Shown here piece after piece: positions 1,949 through 44,657 of a DNA stretch of 61,036 nt (the stretch's first letter is position 1; each line of letters starts with the position of its first letter). This stretch comes from a virus. Its lineage: Duplodnaviria; Caudoviricetes. The translations under genes and the position numbers were made by a program. The notes beneath the pieces are model-generated. The model saw nothing but the letters and a program-made list of their open reading frames with translations, ran no database searches and was not told where the DNA came from. Location: positions 1 through 61,036 of IMG/VR virus record IMGVR_UViG_3300050343_000189, one strand, 5' to 3'.

Positions 1949-2022
1949 GACTCAATAGCTCAGCAGGATAGAGCAACTGCCTTCTAAGCAGTCGGTCGTA
2001 GGTTCGAATCCTACTTGAGTCG
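1949..2022 (+). tRNA. tRNA-Arg (TCT)
   Basis: Acceptor GACTCAA/TTGAGTC, anticodon arm ACTGC-CT TCT AA-GCAGT, T-loop GGTTCGAATCC; no encoded CCA. Confidence 0.96.
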
Positions 2023-2023
2023 T

Positions 2024-2071
2024 TGGGCATCAAGAGAGACCACCACCACCTCCTCTCTTGTGTAAGGCCCA
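2024..2071 (+). ncRNA. Unassigned stem-loop between two tRNAs with a C-rich loop
   Basis: TGGGC/GCCCA and CAAGAGAG/CTCTCTTG stems enclose ACCACCACCACCTC. Confidence 0.5.
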
Positions 2072-2078
2072 TTCATAT

Positions 2079-2149
2079 GCGGAATTAGTTTAGAGGCAAA
2101 ACTAAAGGTTTCCAACCTTTCGTCACCAGTTCGATTCTGGTATTCCGCT
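2079..2149 (+). tRNA. tRNA-Gly (TCC)
   Basis: Acceptor GCGGAAT/ATTCCGC, anticodon arm AAAGG-TT TCC AA-CCTTT, T-arm CCAGTTCGATTCTGG. Confidence 0.93.
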
Positions 2150-2166
2150 TTCTCCAAACTATTATT

Positions 2167-2361
2167 ATGTCTCAGTATGATTTTGGAGGACTTGAAAGAC
2201 ATCCTGTCAATATACTAAGATTGATTAGTGAATTGGAAGGGTCATCCCAAATGTGTAAATACATGGGATTTCAAGATGATATGGATACTCTCAATGAAAT
2301 GAAGAAGAGATATTATAAACTCTACTTCAAAACAAAGAAAGAGTATAACAATCCTCTGTAG
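2167..2361 (+). CDS. Hypothetical protein, 64 aa
   Basis: Clean ORF between tRNAs; its last codons overlap tRNA-Asn. Confidence 0.7.
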   Translation: MSQYDFGGLERHPVNILRLISELEGSSQMCKYMGFQDDMDTLNEMKKRYYKLYFKTKKEYNNPL

Positions 2362-2423
2362 CTCAGCGGTAGAGCCGACGACTGTTAATCGTCTGGTCGC
2401 AGGTTCGAATCCTGCCGGGGGAG
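2352..2423 (+). tRNA. tRNA-Asn (GTT)
   Basis: TCCTCTG...CGGGGGA acceptor, GACGA-CT GTT AA-TCGTC anticodon arm, GGTTCGAATCC. Confidence 0.95.
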
Positions 2424-2425
2424 TT

Positions 2426-2497
2426 GGGCGAATAGCTCAGCGGTAGAGCACCTCCTTTACACGGAGATTGTCGGGGGTTCGATCCCCTCTTCGCCCA
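2426..2497 (+). tRNA. tRNA-Val (TAC)
   Basis: GGGCGAA/TTCGCCC acceptor, CTCC-TT TAC AC-GGAG anticodon arm, GGTTCGATCCC. Confidence 0.95.
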
Positions 2498-2519
2498 TGT
2501 AGAATTCAAAGTATTACTA

Positions 2520-2768
2520 ATGATTACTATCAGATGCAAAGAATGTAGAAAAGAACTGACAAGCACTAGCAAAATTCAGTTCTGTGGTTGTCCCAATCAG
2601 ATGAGTGTTGTGGATATAAAGATCGGTGCCAAAGACTTGGATAAAGTTGTGATGGTATCTAATAACGTAGAGAGAAAGATTGATAGTCACTTCTCTAGTC
2701 AGGAACTAATCTATCAAGAAGAAAGACGTAGACGCAAAGTTCGTAGATTGGACTTTGATGTTCGTTAA
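2520..2768 (+). CDS. Hypothetical protein with putative Zn ribbon
   Basis: CKEC...CGCPN motif, basic C-terminus. Confidence 0.7.
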   Translation: MITIRCKECRKELTSTSKIQFCGCPNQMSVVDIKIGAKDLDKVVMVSNNVERKIDSHFSSQELIYQEERRRRKVRRLDFDVR

Positions 2769-2840
2769 GATATCCACATAGTTGGCATTAGTGTAGCATC
2801 TTGCTACATTAAATAGCATTGTAGACACTTTCTTTCTACC

Positions 2841-2996
2841 ATGCATCCAGACGAATTCGCCAATTGGGCAAAAATCAAAGAAACCTTTGAGGAAAACGGC
2901 ACAACAGACAACTACTATTATAAGCGAGCTTGTGCTATAGTAGGGGGACAACCAGACCCAATGAAGAATCTTCCAAATGTCTCACAGGATGAATGA
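2841..2996 (+). CDS. Small hypothetical protein, 51 aa
   Basis: Manual translation MHPDEFANWAKIKETFEENGTTDNYYYKRACAIVGGQPDPMKNLPNVSQDE. Confidence 0.55.
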   Translation: MHPDEFANWAKIKETFEENGTTDNYYYKRACAIVGGQPDPMKNLPNVSQDE

Positions 2997-3122
2997 AATC
3001 ATACCTGACCACCTTGTATCTAAAAAGGAGTGTCAGGAAATGATTGATAAAGCAATTGACAAACACAATAAAACTGCTACAATTATAAGTGCCATCCTTG
3101 GTGGTATCCTCCTTGCGTTTTA

Positions 3123-3418
3123 CAAGCAGTTAAATCTGATGGTAAGAATTTACTAGTGCAGGAAGAATTCCTGGTATCTTTCAGATTACACTTCCAGAGC
3201 AAAAGGCAGAAGATACACTTGATGAATTGCTACCTTTACTTGAGGAGGGTGATATCATTATTGATCATAGTACCAGTGACATAACAAAATGTCAGGAACT
3301 GGAACTGTATTGTTCTAAGTTAGGTATCTCATATATCTTCTCTGGGGTATATGGAGCATCTGGTGCTATTGATGTTTGCTCAAAAATTTTCCAATCTCTT
3401 TCACCAGGTAATGTTTAA
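3123..3418 (+). CDS. Truncated 6-phosphogluconate dehydrogenase NAD-binding-domain-like protein (5' end missing)
   Basis: DTLDELLPLLEEGDIIIDHSTS...LGISYIFSGVYG resembles the Gnd N-terminal domain (DIIIDxGNS, GVSGG); no catalytic C-terminal domain. Confidence 0.6.
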
Positions 3419-3891
3419 TGATTTTATGTATTGGACCAAGCACTATTGTCGGAACACTAACAACTGCAATACTTGGAGTTATGAGTCCAGATAGTGTTAA
3501 AACCTATGTTGGAGTCAATATAGAACCATATGATACTGAGCAATTTGATTTAAATGAACCTTCTGGTTCCTTTGGTATTGAATATGACATGTACACACAT
3601 ATAAGATTGTTTGCTGAACATCTTTCATCACCAATGCAGTGTGATGATCATCCTGGTATCAATCATGCAGGTGTAAAATTTTTAGCACCACTATCACAAG
3701 ATCTTACGGTGTATAGTGGTATATCTGTGAATAACTCAAAGTTTGATAGTAAAGATAACTTTGAAGGTCCTCTAGGATCTATTGGTATTGAGTATGGTAA
3801 TGATTTAAAATTATTTGCTGAATACTTAAGCAGCATAAAAGAATTTGAAGGTGGTAGAACATCTTTAGGATTAAAATATTTTTTCCATTAG
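3418..3891 (+). CDS. Putative small beta-barrel outer-membrane-like protein
   Basis: Hydrophobic N-terminus, alternating strands, internal repeat (GSFGIEY...RLFAEHLSS / GSIGIEY...KLFAEYLSS), C-terminal LGLKYFF. Confidence 0.6.
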   Translation: MILCIGPSTIVGTLTTAILGVMSPDSVKTYVGVNIEPYDTEQFDLNEPSGSFGIEYDMYTHIRLFAEHLSSPMQCDDHPGINHAGVKFLAPLSQDLTVYSGISVNNSKFDSKDNFEGPLGSIGIEYGNDLKLFAEYLSSIKEFEGGRTSLGLKYFFH

Positions 3892-3932
3892 GAACCCCTG
3901 ACATAAGTATAACAACTTATCGATATTTTTAT

Positions 3933-3980
3933 AGATAGAGATGACTGCACTATTTTTCTGCAGTTGTCTCTATCTTTTTG
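3933..3980 (+). terminator. Long hairpin plus T tract, probable intrinsic terminator
   Basis: AGATAGAGATGACTGCA / TGCAGTTGTCTCTATCT inverted repeat followed by TTTT. Confidence 0.55.
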
Positions 3981-4117
3981 TGCGGTAAACAAAATGTTAG
4001 CAGTAGTTAGAACTCTTATGGAGAACGATGCGTTTCTCTTTATCTTGTGCTATGCTTTAATAGTAGTTCCAGTTATAGGAATTGCAAAAATTCATAATAC
4101 GGAAATACATTTGGATA

Positions 4118-4306
4118 ATGGAAAAGAAGTATAAAAGTAGATTCAATTTTGCAATGTCATCATTTGCAAGAATGTATGGTCCAAGAGGTATCACGGAAAA
4201 GATGTGTAATCTTTGTAAGACTTGGGCGAGTAATGATATTGAACCACCAACCGGAAGTTTGACTCAGGTTGATTTTTACTTCAGAGATATCATGCAAGGT
4301 AATTGA
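4118..4306 (+). CDS. Hypothetical protein
   Basis: ORF from MEKKYKSRFNFAMSSFARMYG. Confidence 0.6.
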   Translation: MEKKYKSRFNFAMSSFARMYGPRGITEKMCNLCKTWASNDIEPPTGSLTQVDFYFRDIMQGN

Positions 4307-4331
4307 CAGAGTAAATTTTGAGTAGTATAAT
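4303..4331 (+). promoter_or_regulatory. Consensus sigma70-type (early) promoter
   Basis: TTGACA-17 nt-TATAAT exact. Confidence 0.85.
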
Positions 4332-4336
4332 TTAAA

Positions 4337-4403
4337 AGTTGAGAGATCAACTGCGGTGCTCCCCTTTGGCAGGTTCAGGAGTAGCGGCGATAGGAACTTG
4401 CCA
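4337..4403 (+). ncRNA. Unassigned structured RNA (hairpin plus possible pseudoknot)
   Basis: GC-rich island right after the promoter; AGTTGA/TCAACT hairpin; TGGCAGGTTC/GAACTTGCCA stem whose loop GGAGTA can pair with upstream TGCTCC. Confidence 0.55.
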
Positions 4404-4430
4404 CATAATTTCATTATACATAATGCAACT

Positions 4431-4603
4431 ATGGAATTTTATTCAGTGGAATACTGGCAAAAGAACTGGGAAAATTGATGGAAAGAGTGGAGAATGGAGA
4501 GACGATAGGAGTGGAAAATAAAAGGGGTGAGAGGGCAGTAATGGTGCCTGCTGATGATGAACTCATACGAATATACACAGAGCAAAACAACGAAGGATCC
4601 TGA
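4431..4603 (+). CDS. Phd/YefM antitoxin-like small protein (one frameshift)
   Basis: Manual translation MEFYSVEYWQKNWE..MERVENGETIGVENKRGERAVMVPADDE; matches the Phd N-terminal pattern xxRVxxGExIxIxxxG..AVxxP. Confidence 0.6.
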
Positions 4604-4675
4604 GGGACTGTCGCATATTGGTTAATGCTCTCTGCTTATAACGGGGTAAACTGGGTTCAATTCCCAGCAGTCCTA
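4604..4675 (+). tRNA. tRNA-Ile (TAT)
   Basis: GGGACTG/CAGTCCT acceptor, CTCTG-CT TAT AA-CGGGG anticodon arm, CTGGGTTCAATTCCCAG T-arm. Confidence 0.85.
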
Positions 4676-4678
4676 TTT

Positions 4679-4751
4679 GCTTCCTTAGCAATCTGGTGAA
4701 TGCAGCAAACTCATAATTTGCCTAAGGTGAGTTCGATCCTCACAGGAAGCA
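4679..4751 (+). tRNA. tRNA with CAT anticodon (elongator Met or Ile2)
   Basis: GCTTCCT/AGGAAGC acceptor, GCAAA-CT CAT AA-TTTGC, GTGAGTTCGATCCTCAC; lacks the initiator GGG/CCC anticodon stem. Confidence 0.9.
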
Positions 4752-5367: not shown

Positions 5368-5575
5368 ATGTCAACTAAAGGAACAGCAGCAAAGTCTGCA
5401 AGTGGAGCAGCAATGTCTAAGTATGATGTTGAAGTCGAATCAAGACTAGAAAGCATTAGAAGCAAAAGCAAATGCTCCAGTTTCAACTGGTGGGGAATCT
5501 AGTGAATTGGAAGCAAAAGTGGATGGTTATTGAGCTCTAAAATCAAAAATGCCTGGTCAGTTTAAAGACCTTTAA
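5368..5575 (+). CDS. Small hypothetical coiled-coil protein (frameshifted), late promoter upstream
   Basis: MSTKGTAAKSASGAAMSKYDVEVESRL...; CTAAATA at 5336-5342. Confidence 0.5.
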
Positions 5576-5576
5576 T

Positions 5577-5666
5577 GGTTTCTTACTTTACCTAAGAGTA
5601 AGTGGTGCGGATGGGGTACTCCCGCCCTGTTTCTTGCTTCAGGTAAAAGAGCAAGTGGCGTGCATG
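5577..5666 (+). ncRNA. wcaG RNA motif
   Basis: Two repeated units GTTTCTTAC..GAGTAAGTGGTGCGGA and GTTTCTTGC..GAGCAAGTGGCGTGCA around a GGG/CCC hairpin, upstream of an NAD-dependent epimerase gene. Confidence 0.75.
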
Positions 5667-5678
5667 ACAAGACCTTCA

Positions 5679-36720: not shown

Positions 36721-36764
36721 AGTCGAGAGGTTAAGGAACCAACACATTTCTTAACTGTTCGTTA

Positions 36765-36870
36765 CACCCCGCAAACCAAGACCTATAGGGTGTCTAAAAA
36801 CGTCTTTAATACCTGCCTCTGAGGGTGATACAGGAATAGTAAAACCATCATTTCCCTGATGATCTTACTT
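36765..36870 (+). ncRNA. PhotoRC-II-like psbA leader RNA
   Basis: ACCAAGACCTATAGGGTGT..GTCTTTAATACCTG..TGAGGGTG..CAGGAATAGTAA..CATCA-TTTCCC-TGATG directly 5' of psbA. Confidence 0.75.
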
Positions 36871-43958: not shown

Positions 43959-43987
43959 TTGACTAAATAATGTATGAGGTCTATAAT
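43959..43987 (+). promoter_or_regulatory. sigma70 promoter with embedded late promoter
   Basis: TTGACT-17 nt-TATAAT; CTAAATA at 43963. Confidence 0.8.
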
Positions 43988-43996
43988 AAGACCTGA

Positions 43997-44222
43997 CGTT
44001 CATCCCACTCTTGGGTGGGACGCAAGTAAGTCGCGGAACGGAGCCGTTCATCCCATGATTGATTTTTCTTATATTCAACACTCAGTTGTTCTGATGCCGA
44101 TGCAATTATGCTACGGATGAAGAATAATGAAAATCTTAACAATCAAGTTAGGATTGAATTGATTGAGGTTATGAAGGAGTCATCTCCTGATTGCTATTGG
44201 GACGCAAACGACTAAAGGAACG
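43997..44222 (+). promoter_or_regulatory. Glutamine riboswitch (glnA-type) with nested second module
   Basis: P1 CGTTC/GAACG, P2 TCCCAC/GTGGGA, CGCAAGTAA, P3 GTCG/CGAC, TAAAGGAACG; lies upstream of a DUF4278-like gene. Confidence 0.75.
44055..44215 (+). CDS. ~53 aa hypothetical protein inside the riboswitch (one frameshift)
   Basis: GGAG at 44040, ATG at 44055; MIDF..LYSTLSCSDADAIMLRMKNNENLNNQVRIELIEVMKESSPDCYWDAND-stop. Confidence 0.6.
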
Positions 44223-44257
44223 GACCTAAAAATCCAACTACTTTAGGAGTACCTACA

Positions 44258-44425
44258 ATGAACACACTAAACATGATCAAGAAGCAGATCAACAAAGCAT
44301 CTGCTGTTCACGACGCACAGATTACTCACACCTCATATCGTGGTGTTGAGTATTCTACTCGTTGTGTAGAAAGCAAAGAGTCTCACGGGACTTTCTGCTA
44401 TCGTGGACGCACTTACACTAAGTGA
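44258..44425 (+). CDS. DUF4278-like small protein (GS inactivating factor-like)
   Basis: 55 aa with two YRG motifs (SYRGVEY, CYRGRTY); SD AGGAG at 44245. Confidence 0.75.
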   Translation: MNTLNMIKKQINKASAVHDAQITHTSYRGVEYSTRCVESKESHGTFCYRGRTYTK

Positions 44426-44452
44426 TTGTCAAACCGATTAAATAGTGTTATG

Positions 44453-44477
44453 ATGGGAGGGAAACCTCCCATTTTTT
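44453..44477 (+). terminator. Intrinsic terminator
   Basis: ATGGGAGG-GAAA-CCTCCCAT plus T tract. Confidence 0.85.
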
Positions 44478-44657
44478 ATGGAAAGAGATAAACTAAAACT
44501 GATAGTAAAGAATCTAAAACTGCTGGTTGATGCTCTTGAGTCTGAGGTATACTCTGATGTAGATGTATACACGACCAAGCAAGAAAATTTTGATGATCCT
44601 GCTTCCAACTACATATTAGATTATGACGAAGTTTTTGAGGACGACGATGGATAAGAT
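44478..44657 (+). CDS. Small acidic hypothetical protein
   Basis: MERDKLKLIVKNLKLLVDALESEVYSDVD...DYDEVFEDDDG. Confidence 0.6.

Follow-up and report, generated by a model that had tools for sequence, protein, structure and literature searches.

A cyanophage leader that is probably a glutamine riboswitch with P3 capped by a second, permuted aptamer core, and with a small gene enclosed in relatives

Glutamine riboswitches have been described as ON switches upstream of DUF4278/IF17 genes, and for the gifB leader of Synechocystis it has been proposed that glutamine releases a masked ribosome-binding site such that the DUF4278/IF17 gene is switched on (PMC6212724, in its accessible text). According to the accessible part of PMC6698751, the glutamine site is nearly identical in aptamers of types I and II, with contacts to the ligand from the G of the ACG strand and from the C:G and G:C pairs that end the CGUUC/GAACG helix. 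More than one aptamer may occur in a leader: the available text of Sherlock 2022 describes 157 doublets and 4 triplets as pseudo-cooperative tandem glutamine riboswitches with multiple expression platforms, and the word 'nested' is absent from that text (PMC9481103). In the portion of the Weinberg 2010 alignment that was accessible, the halves of the arrangement reported here are listed as separate P3-less hits, and cyanophage and marine-phage papers, as far as their accessible passages go, mention glutamine riboswitches without structural detail. A literature search, with Ames & Breaker 2011 (RNA Biol 8:82) outside its scope, returned neither a nested glutamine aptamer nor an aptamer that contains a gene in the accessible portions of the texts retrieved.

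The leader described here lies in a 61,036-base IMG/VR virus fragment (the window, by which we mean this whole stretch of DNA) that comes from a T4-like cyanomyovirus and has its closest matches among Synechococcus and Prochlorococcus phages; the coordinates of its features are collected in Table 1. Under the nested-aptamer reading, which as a whole we consider probable, the element would be the leader in a small transcription unit of its own, made of a promoter, this leader, a DUF4278-like gene and a terminator. The sigma70 promoter that a previous sequence-only reading had placed upstream of the element was recovered as a sigma-70-like promoter, and the transcript would start a few bases 5' of the CGUUC at 43997. 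The -10 box TATAAT is contained in an inverted repeat, AGGTCT ATAATA AGACCT (43978-43995), and similar repeats are found around the -10 boxes of relatives. The downstream gene had been announced as coding for a DUF4278 protein; its product is DUF4278-like and belongs to phrog_545 (E 9e-36), but its match to PF14105 (DUF4278) stays below the family cut-off (22.2 bits, E 1.9e-4, against 25.3). The unit seems to be closed by an intrinsic-terminator-like hairpin (44452-73) and T-run. Another terminator-like hairpin, at 44175-88, is not conserved in relatives and was treated as incidental. One 397-nt contig from the RNA library X18 covers 44015-44410, RNA-library contigs not being proof of transcription. 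Elsewhere in the window, Rfam models located a wcaG RNA (5574-5669, 94.1 bits) and a PhotoRC-II RNA (36752-36847, 66.3 bits), and six tRNA genes are found at 1949-4751.

Table 1. Features of the leader and its flanks, in window coordinates; roles are predicted.
Feature	Position	Strand	Basis or remark
Sigma-70-like promoter: TTGACT, 17-nt spacer, TATAAT	43959..43987	+	11/12 positions match
Outer P1, 5' strand CGUUC-1	43997..44001	+	pairs with 44218-44222
P2a hairpin UCCCAC/GUGGGA, loop UCUUGG	44003..44020 (arms 44003-08/44015-20)	+	2/4 counted pairs with compensatory changes
Outer junction strand CGCAAGUA	44021..44028	+	Rfam consensus alignment
P3, 5' strand AGUCG	44029..44033	+	pairs with 44209-44213 across inner core and insert
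Inner hairpin GAACG-GAGC-CGUUC (permuted P1')	44036..44049 (44036-40/44045-49)	+	in MFE fold
P2b, 5' arm UCCCA	44051..44055	+	pairs with 44198-44202; overlaps ATG 44055-57
Remnant of embedded gene (phrog_504 family)	44055..44215	+	ATG 44055, stop TAA 44213-15
P2b, 3' arm UGGGA, and inner junction strand CGCAAA (44203-08)	44198..44208	+	bases kept in ORF-less forms
P3, 3' strand CGACU	44209..44213	+	covariation
E-loop, 3' half CUAAAG	44212..44217	+	alternative anti-SD partner of 44241-44246
Outer P1, 3' strand GAACG-2	44218..44222	+	pairs with 43997-44001
CUUUAG (44241-46) and SD AGGAG (44245-49) of downstream gene	44241..44249	+	complementarity with 44212-17
DUF4278-like (IF17-like) gene, 55 codons, presumed regulated gene	44258..44425	+	Pfam/PHROG profiles
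Intrinsic-terminator-like hairpin (44452-73) and T-run	44452..44479	+	9-pair stem, then TTTTAT

All the RNA motifs that the sequence-only reading had listed were present at their coordinates. The outer part of the element has what is expected of a Glutamine-I aptamer, namely a CGUUC/GAACG P1, a P2 hairpin with E-loop strands, and a P3 in a three-way junction. The E-loop is a conserved non-Watson-Crick junction motif. Its 5' half, AAGUA, occupies 44024-28 of the outer junction strand, where the ligand-site G is nucleotide 44022, and the UAAAGG stretch at 44213-18, directly before the 3' strand of P1, aligns to the Glutamine consensus. In the place of a simple P3 loop the RNA probably carries a second, circularly permuted glutamine-aptamer core made of the GAACG/CGUUC hairpin, P2b and the ACGCAAA strand, such that the two cores would share P3. 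The GGAG that serves as SD of the embedded gene (44040-43) lies inside the inner hairpin, P2b encloses about 142 nt (44056-44197), and the stretch 44198-44208 doubles as the codons for a C-terminal W-D-A-N. An additional inner stem, GCG/CGC (44033-35/44203-05), had been proposed; it conflicts with the covarying pair G44033:C44209 and was discarded for that pair.

Compared with Glutamine-I (glnA, RF01739; the gifB/IF17 leader in the accessible text of PMC6212724), the locus has the same CGUUC/GAACG P1, the P2 followed by ACGCAAGUA, the E-loop strands and P3, it precedes a DUF4278-type gene, and its ORF-less relatives pass the family cut-off. Unlike Glutamine-I, P3 appears to be capped by an aptamer-like core and not by a loop, the inner-core hairpin (in some relatives the outer P2 as well) encloses a whole gene, and the window, with 24.5 bits, falls short of the cut-off of 35. 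With Glutamine-II (Downstream-peptide, RF01704) it shares the ligand-site nucleotides, as given in the accessible part of PMC6698751, an inner core devoid of E-loop and P3, and a possible reading from CGUUC-2 to GAACG-2 that reaches up to 34.0 bits (in L035); it differs in having no second hairpin that presents GGAACG in its loop as a pseudoknot, and the window scores 24.7 bits against 33. As in the tandem glutamine riboswitches there are two glutamine-aptamer cores per leader, whereas those, in the available text of PMC9481103, are separate aptamers with their own platforms, and here the halves interdigitate and share a covarying P3.

The layout is, judging from pattern matches in phage records and viral contigs, common to many ocean cyanophages. 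A 1.2-kb query from the window matched 426 phage records, many of which span 43964-44426 at 75-80% identity, and the core is unchanged in an alignment of five phage genera. Four annotated phages of different genera, ACG-2014e, S-RIM14, S-SM2 and S-MbCM6, keep all of it, and each has an annotated CDS of 54-55 codons where the window has its insert. When viral contigs were scanned with an 18-base core pattern, at least 120 loci were obtained, which with the window and the four phages made 125 hits; 115 of them were complete by motif tests and 111 were unique. Conservation on this scale goes well beyond chance. The family core reads CGUUCA-[P2a]-ACGCAAGUAAGUCGCGGAACGG-(2-4 nt)-CGUUCA-[P2b]-ACGCAAACGACURAAGGAACGG, and its invariance is partly by construction since the loci were chosen with patterns and regexes containing those motifs. 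Twelve of 130 pattern hits (a number that includes the genome_contigs loci added later) failed the motif tests; among the causes were truncation at the locus ends (five), a U:G or G:U wobble in P3 (three), a C-to-A change in ACGCAAA (two), changes in the first half (one) and the absence of CGUUCA-2 (two). In the last two, L080 and L121, the second CGUUCA is missing together with the P2b 5' arm, and the ORF, P3, E-loop strand and GAACG-2 are all retained; they look like natural 'outer aptamer only' variants. When one genome per prokaryote species was searched with the core pattern, which is narrow, 7 hits were obtained, all in MAGs or odd contigs, of which some have the size of a phage genome. 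These (L151-L157) fall in bins named Synechococcus, Verrucomicrobiales, Nonlabens, Sphingobacterium and Euryarchaeota, two of the contigs are of about 188-194 kb, and they are probably cyanophage contigs placed in the wrong bins.

Within the 111 listed unique elements, P2b is a short hairpin in 10 and bears an insert in 101. The inserts measure 149-209 nt, mostly 159, 162, 165 or 168, and the window is the sole listed element with 158 nt. A further insert of 208-243 nt, in P2a, is present in 26 of the 111 and constitutes an ORF of 65-75 codons whose AUG and stop codon lie in the 5' and 3' arms, respectively (L012, L017, L020 and L024 are examples). The P2a arms of these ORF-bearing forms covary (UCUCAUG/CAUGAGA, UCUUAUG/CAUAAGA and UCCUAUG/CAUAGGA).

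The long-range pairs of the nested fold, for which covariation had been named as a check, do covary in P3 and in P2b. As P3 was fixed by the first pattern, variants of its 5' strand were collected in a separate scan, which gave 26 loci, not dereplicated. All of the 25 loci for which the 3' part is available carry the complementary change (AUCG/CGAU in 14, AUCU/AGAU in 3, UUCG/CGAA in 3 and GACU/AGUC in 5), such that P3 exists in five helix versions, four besides the common one, and three further loci have a U:G or G:U wobble. Pair counts were made on a 58-sequence alignment (A2), where the nested structure is paired in 99.6% of cells, with six pairs changed on both sides, and where its covariation score was reached by none of 500 shuffles. 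Three of the five P3 pairs are changed on both sides and 100% of the P3 cells are paired; P2b, equally 100% paired, has one compensatory pair, and its ends pair over at least 4 bp in all 111 listed elements. The window preserves each of the 24 pairs counted for the nested fold. The outer P1 shows zero variation in A2, partly through row selection, and is without covariation evidence, as is the inner hairpin, whose stem is invariant among the listed elements. Because neither P1 helix nor the inner hairpin ever varies, covariation says nothing about whether CGUUC-1 pairs with GAACG-2 or with GAACG-1. The support for the outer P1 comes from the Rfam model, which pairs the corresponding strands in nine of the eleven ORF-less relatives, and it fits with L080 and L121, which in the absence of CGUUCA-2 retain P3, the E-loop strand and GAACG-2.

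At gathering cut-offs, Rfam found no glutamine-family match in the whole window. With relaxed thresholds the window gave the two scores already mentioned, both models aligning locally and over the first half only (43994-44048). The natural ORF-less relatives, which served in place of the proposed in-silico deletion of the insert, behave differently: nine of eleven score 38.4-46.8 bits against Rfam Glutamine (cut-off 35), and in those nine the model covers the nested element from end to end and treats 38-48 nt as an insertion in P3. As for the two others, L024 falls below the cut-off because its P2a holds an ORF, and for L043 just the second half is reported. The minimum free energy fold of the aptamer region taken by itself is also the nested one, at -61.9 kcal/mol for the window and -25.6 kcal/mol for the ORF-less L011. 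Together, the covariation of P3 and P2b and the scores of the ORF-less relatives support the nested architecture that had been suggested from the sequence.

We also weighed the reading in which the same motifs make two side-by-side, P3-less glutamine aptamers, or in which these are one state of a strand-exchange switch. Aptamer 1 (CGUUC 43997 with GAACG 44036-40) would control the embedded gene, and aptamer 2 (CGUUC 44045 with GAACG 44218-22, folded around that gene) would control the DUF4278-like gene. It is exactly the local aptamer 1 that Rfam aligns in the window, at 24.5 and 24.7 bits; under the aptamer 2 reading the ORF-less relatives obtain 25.9-34.0 bits with Glutamine-II, and one of the eleven (L035, 34.0 against 33) passes the cut-off; and the side-by-side pairing is only 0.8-1.0 kcal/mol less stable than the nested fold. 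This small energy gap and the Glutamine-II score of L035 make a strand-exchange equilibrium possible. Yet the covarying P3 joins the two halves, and between side-by-side aptamers it would have to link two internal loops as a pseudoknot. AAGUA belongs to the first half only and URAAGG to the second only, such that the E-loop is assembled by the nested fold alone. The inner linker is of 2-4 nt in all 111 listed elements, as for a hairpin loop, and the nine ORF-less forms that reach the Glutamine-I cut-off do so only as a nested fold. Two independently folding aptamers were not what we found, with the E-loop halves split between the copies, P3 joining them and the local halves scoring below the cut-offs. 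The side-by-side reading is therefore, in our opinion, rather unlikely, and the nested fold, in which a permuted core caps P3, is preferred in what follows.

The loop enclosed by P2b had been taken for a single ORF of about 145 nt. From ATG 44055 to the TAA ending at 44215 there are 161 nt, which is not a multiple of three, and a single ORF over 44055-44215 was rejected since the stretch spans two frames. The frame of ATG 44055 stops at 44118-20 after 21 codons, and the conserved frame, closed upstream by a TGA (44060-62), is open only over 44063-44215. That frame matches positions 4-53 of the 53 of the phrog_504 profile (E 6e-26), and it is the frameshift that separates it from ATG 44055. Alignment to relatives shows that a single base is absent from codon 3, within five consecutive T (44063-67). 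Environmental contigs of 90% or higher similarity from three runs (X1, X2 and the RNA library X18) have one more T following 44062, which brings ATG 44055 back into the conserved frame, and among the contigs listed none bridges 44062 without the extra T. The 1-nt deletion of the window could be a real (knock-out) variant or stem from faulty assembly of the homopolymer. The contigs of X3, in which a short hairpin links 44041/42 to 44199/200, represent ORF-less alleles. The arrangement claimed from the sequence, with the SD in the inner hairpin, the ATG overlapping the P2b arm and the TAA in the outer junction, holds as to positions, but the gene to which these signals belong is frameshifted in the window.

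In relatives, the embedded gene is intact in 98 of the 101 listed ORF-bearing elements and has 53-56 codons. In 93 of the 101 it runs from an AUG situated 9-16 nt after CGUUCA-2 to a stop placed exactly at the URA of CGAC-URA-AGG; of the others, five stop slightly earlier, two read through, and the window alone stops after 21 codons. A linker AG, AGC or AGT, which completes the GGAG, is found in 97 of the 101 ORF-bearing and in none of the 10 ORF-less listed elements. In 78 CDS of 50-57 codons, the median dN/dS is 0.28 over 2044 pairs, and the entropy at the three codon positions is 0.97/0.48/1.27. Lack of conservation of the embedded ORF, which had been named as an observation that would speak against the whole proposal, was not encountered: the ORF is conserved and selected in relatives, where the insert appears from these comparisons to be the gene of a selected two-cysteine microprotein of 53-56 codons. 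In the last five codons (W-D-A-N-D) the third position is invariant, as is expected if the RNA also constrains them. The protein (phrog_504) has two invariant cysteines and no Pfam match. A profile comparison (hhalign) between the P2b gene and the P2a-loop ORFs gave 75% probability and an E of 2.4e-5 over 39 columns with both cysteines aligned, so that the genes in the two loops are probably distant paralogs.

Downstream of the aptamer lies CUUYAG (44241-46), which has complementarity to the junction strand CURAAG (44212-17) and shares bases with the AGGAG of the DUF4278-like gene. When the junction has A (UAAAGG), the partner has U (UUUAG) in 34 of 34 listed elements; when it has G (UGAAGG), the listed partners have C (UUCAG) in 47, U (UUUAG, a G:U pair) in 20, and are unclear in 10. 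On A2 this R:Y pair is GC in 25 sequences, AU in 19, GU in 9 and other in 5, and the anti-SD helix is 89.7% paired, the misses being mostly relatives with a different downstream sequence. The MFE fold that includes the SD region (-71.2 kcal/mol, z -2.37 relative to shuffles) uses the anti-SD helix, and forcing the nested P1 in that context costs about 6 kcal/mol. This helix is the sole candidate expression platform that has comparative support. About 10 of the 58 relatives in A2 have other sequence where the SD and the DUF4278-like part would be: L003 (S-SM2), L015, L036, L055, L069, L073, L093, L126, L128 and L157 have after GGAACGG a different conserved sequence, GGGAAAAACGGAUCC..GCGAAAGC..AGAAGG.., in place of the CUUYAGGAG SD and the DUF4278-like start. 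A separate complementarity, between GUUCAU (43998-44003) and AUGAAC (44258-44263), is paired in the MFE fold; an ATGAAC or ATGAAT start occurs in 85 of the 111 listed relatives and may only reflect a conserved Met-Asn.

How such an RNA would work can be proposed from the fold and its conservation. We are somewhat inclined to consider the nested RNA a glutamine-ON translational switch for the DUF4278-like gene, where, without glutamine, the junction strand would mask the SD of this gene, and glutamine would stabilise the nested fold such that the SD is freed and the gene is turned on, in line with what has been proposed for the gifB leader. Each of the two cores has the contact nucleotides given in the accessible part of PMC6698751 (C1, G2, the G of ACG and the CG of GAACG). 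Whether the inner core would take up a second glutamine is nonetheless uncertain, since this core is without an E-loop and its ligand-site base pair is closed by a loop of 3-5 nt; we think such binding conceivable, though slightly improbable. Folding of the aptamer and translation of the enclosed gene would be mutually exclusive, and it is doubtful that this exclusion is used as a regulated toggle. It would be just as tentative to suppose that two glutamine sites sharing P3 give a steep response, with ribosome traffic on the enclosed gene competing with glutamine. In such a two-input device, low glutamine and an unfolded sensor would give the two-cysteine microprotein, and high glutamine and a folded sensor the IF17-like glutamine-synthetase regulator.

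Two other explanations dispense with glutamine as the main signal. One holds that no ligand is sensed and that the flanks are sites where a mobile microprotein cassette recombines or inserts, or are conserved only as C-terminal codons; it would account for an ORF that some close relatives have and others lack, for paralogous ORFs in both hairpin loops, and for a 3' arm that doubles as W-D-A-N-D codons. But these bases persist in ORF-less forms, whose scores are those of glutamine aptamers, the invariant third positions of the last five codons go beyond what coding alone would require, and P3 and the anti-SD helix covary, so that we regard this explanation as very improbable. According to the other, the enclosed gene is the main input: ribosomes that terminate at the CURAAG stop would open the anti-SD helix and couple the translation of both genes, with the aptamers only modulating. 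The stop lies exactly in the anti-SD strand in 93 of the 101 listed elements, at about 43 nt from the next AUG, as coupling would have it; however, 10 of the 111 listed elements, and in effect the window, keep the anti-SD helix and the SD without a translatable enclosed gene, and coupling therefore cannot be required. Coupling as the main input is thus improbable, if less so than the cassette, and the glutamine-responsive nested fold is the reading whose consequences are discussed below.

Riboswitch aptamers are usually treated as compact non-coding domains, and here a second sensor core appears to lie inside a helix of the first, with a sensing fold that spans about 225 nt because a gene sits inside one of its hairpins. 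The c-di-AMP riboswitch ydaO and the tandem glycine riboswitches are pseudo-symmetric and have two ligand sites, and the homing-endonuclease ORFs in group I intron loops illustrate that a peripheral loop of a structured RNA can house a gene; the present element is similar to these in its internal duplication and in the gene in a loop, and differs in ligand and fold. To our knowledge, no riboswitch aptamer has been described with a gene inside a core hairpin. If the nested reading is true, the same bases would serve as sensor and as codons, routine covariance-model scans would undercount glutamine riboswitches in cyanophages, and, should the two-input view also be true, a gene would form part of the hairpin loop of a riboswitch aptamer. 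The natural ORF-bearing, ORF-less and frameshifted alleles are ready-made experimental comparisons. For the phages, the reading would mean that they may tune an IF17-like regulator of the host glutamine synthetase to the nitrogen state of the host by means of an unusual two-core device.
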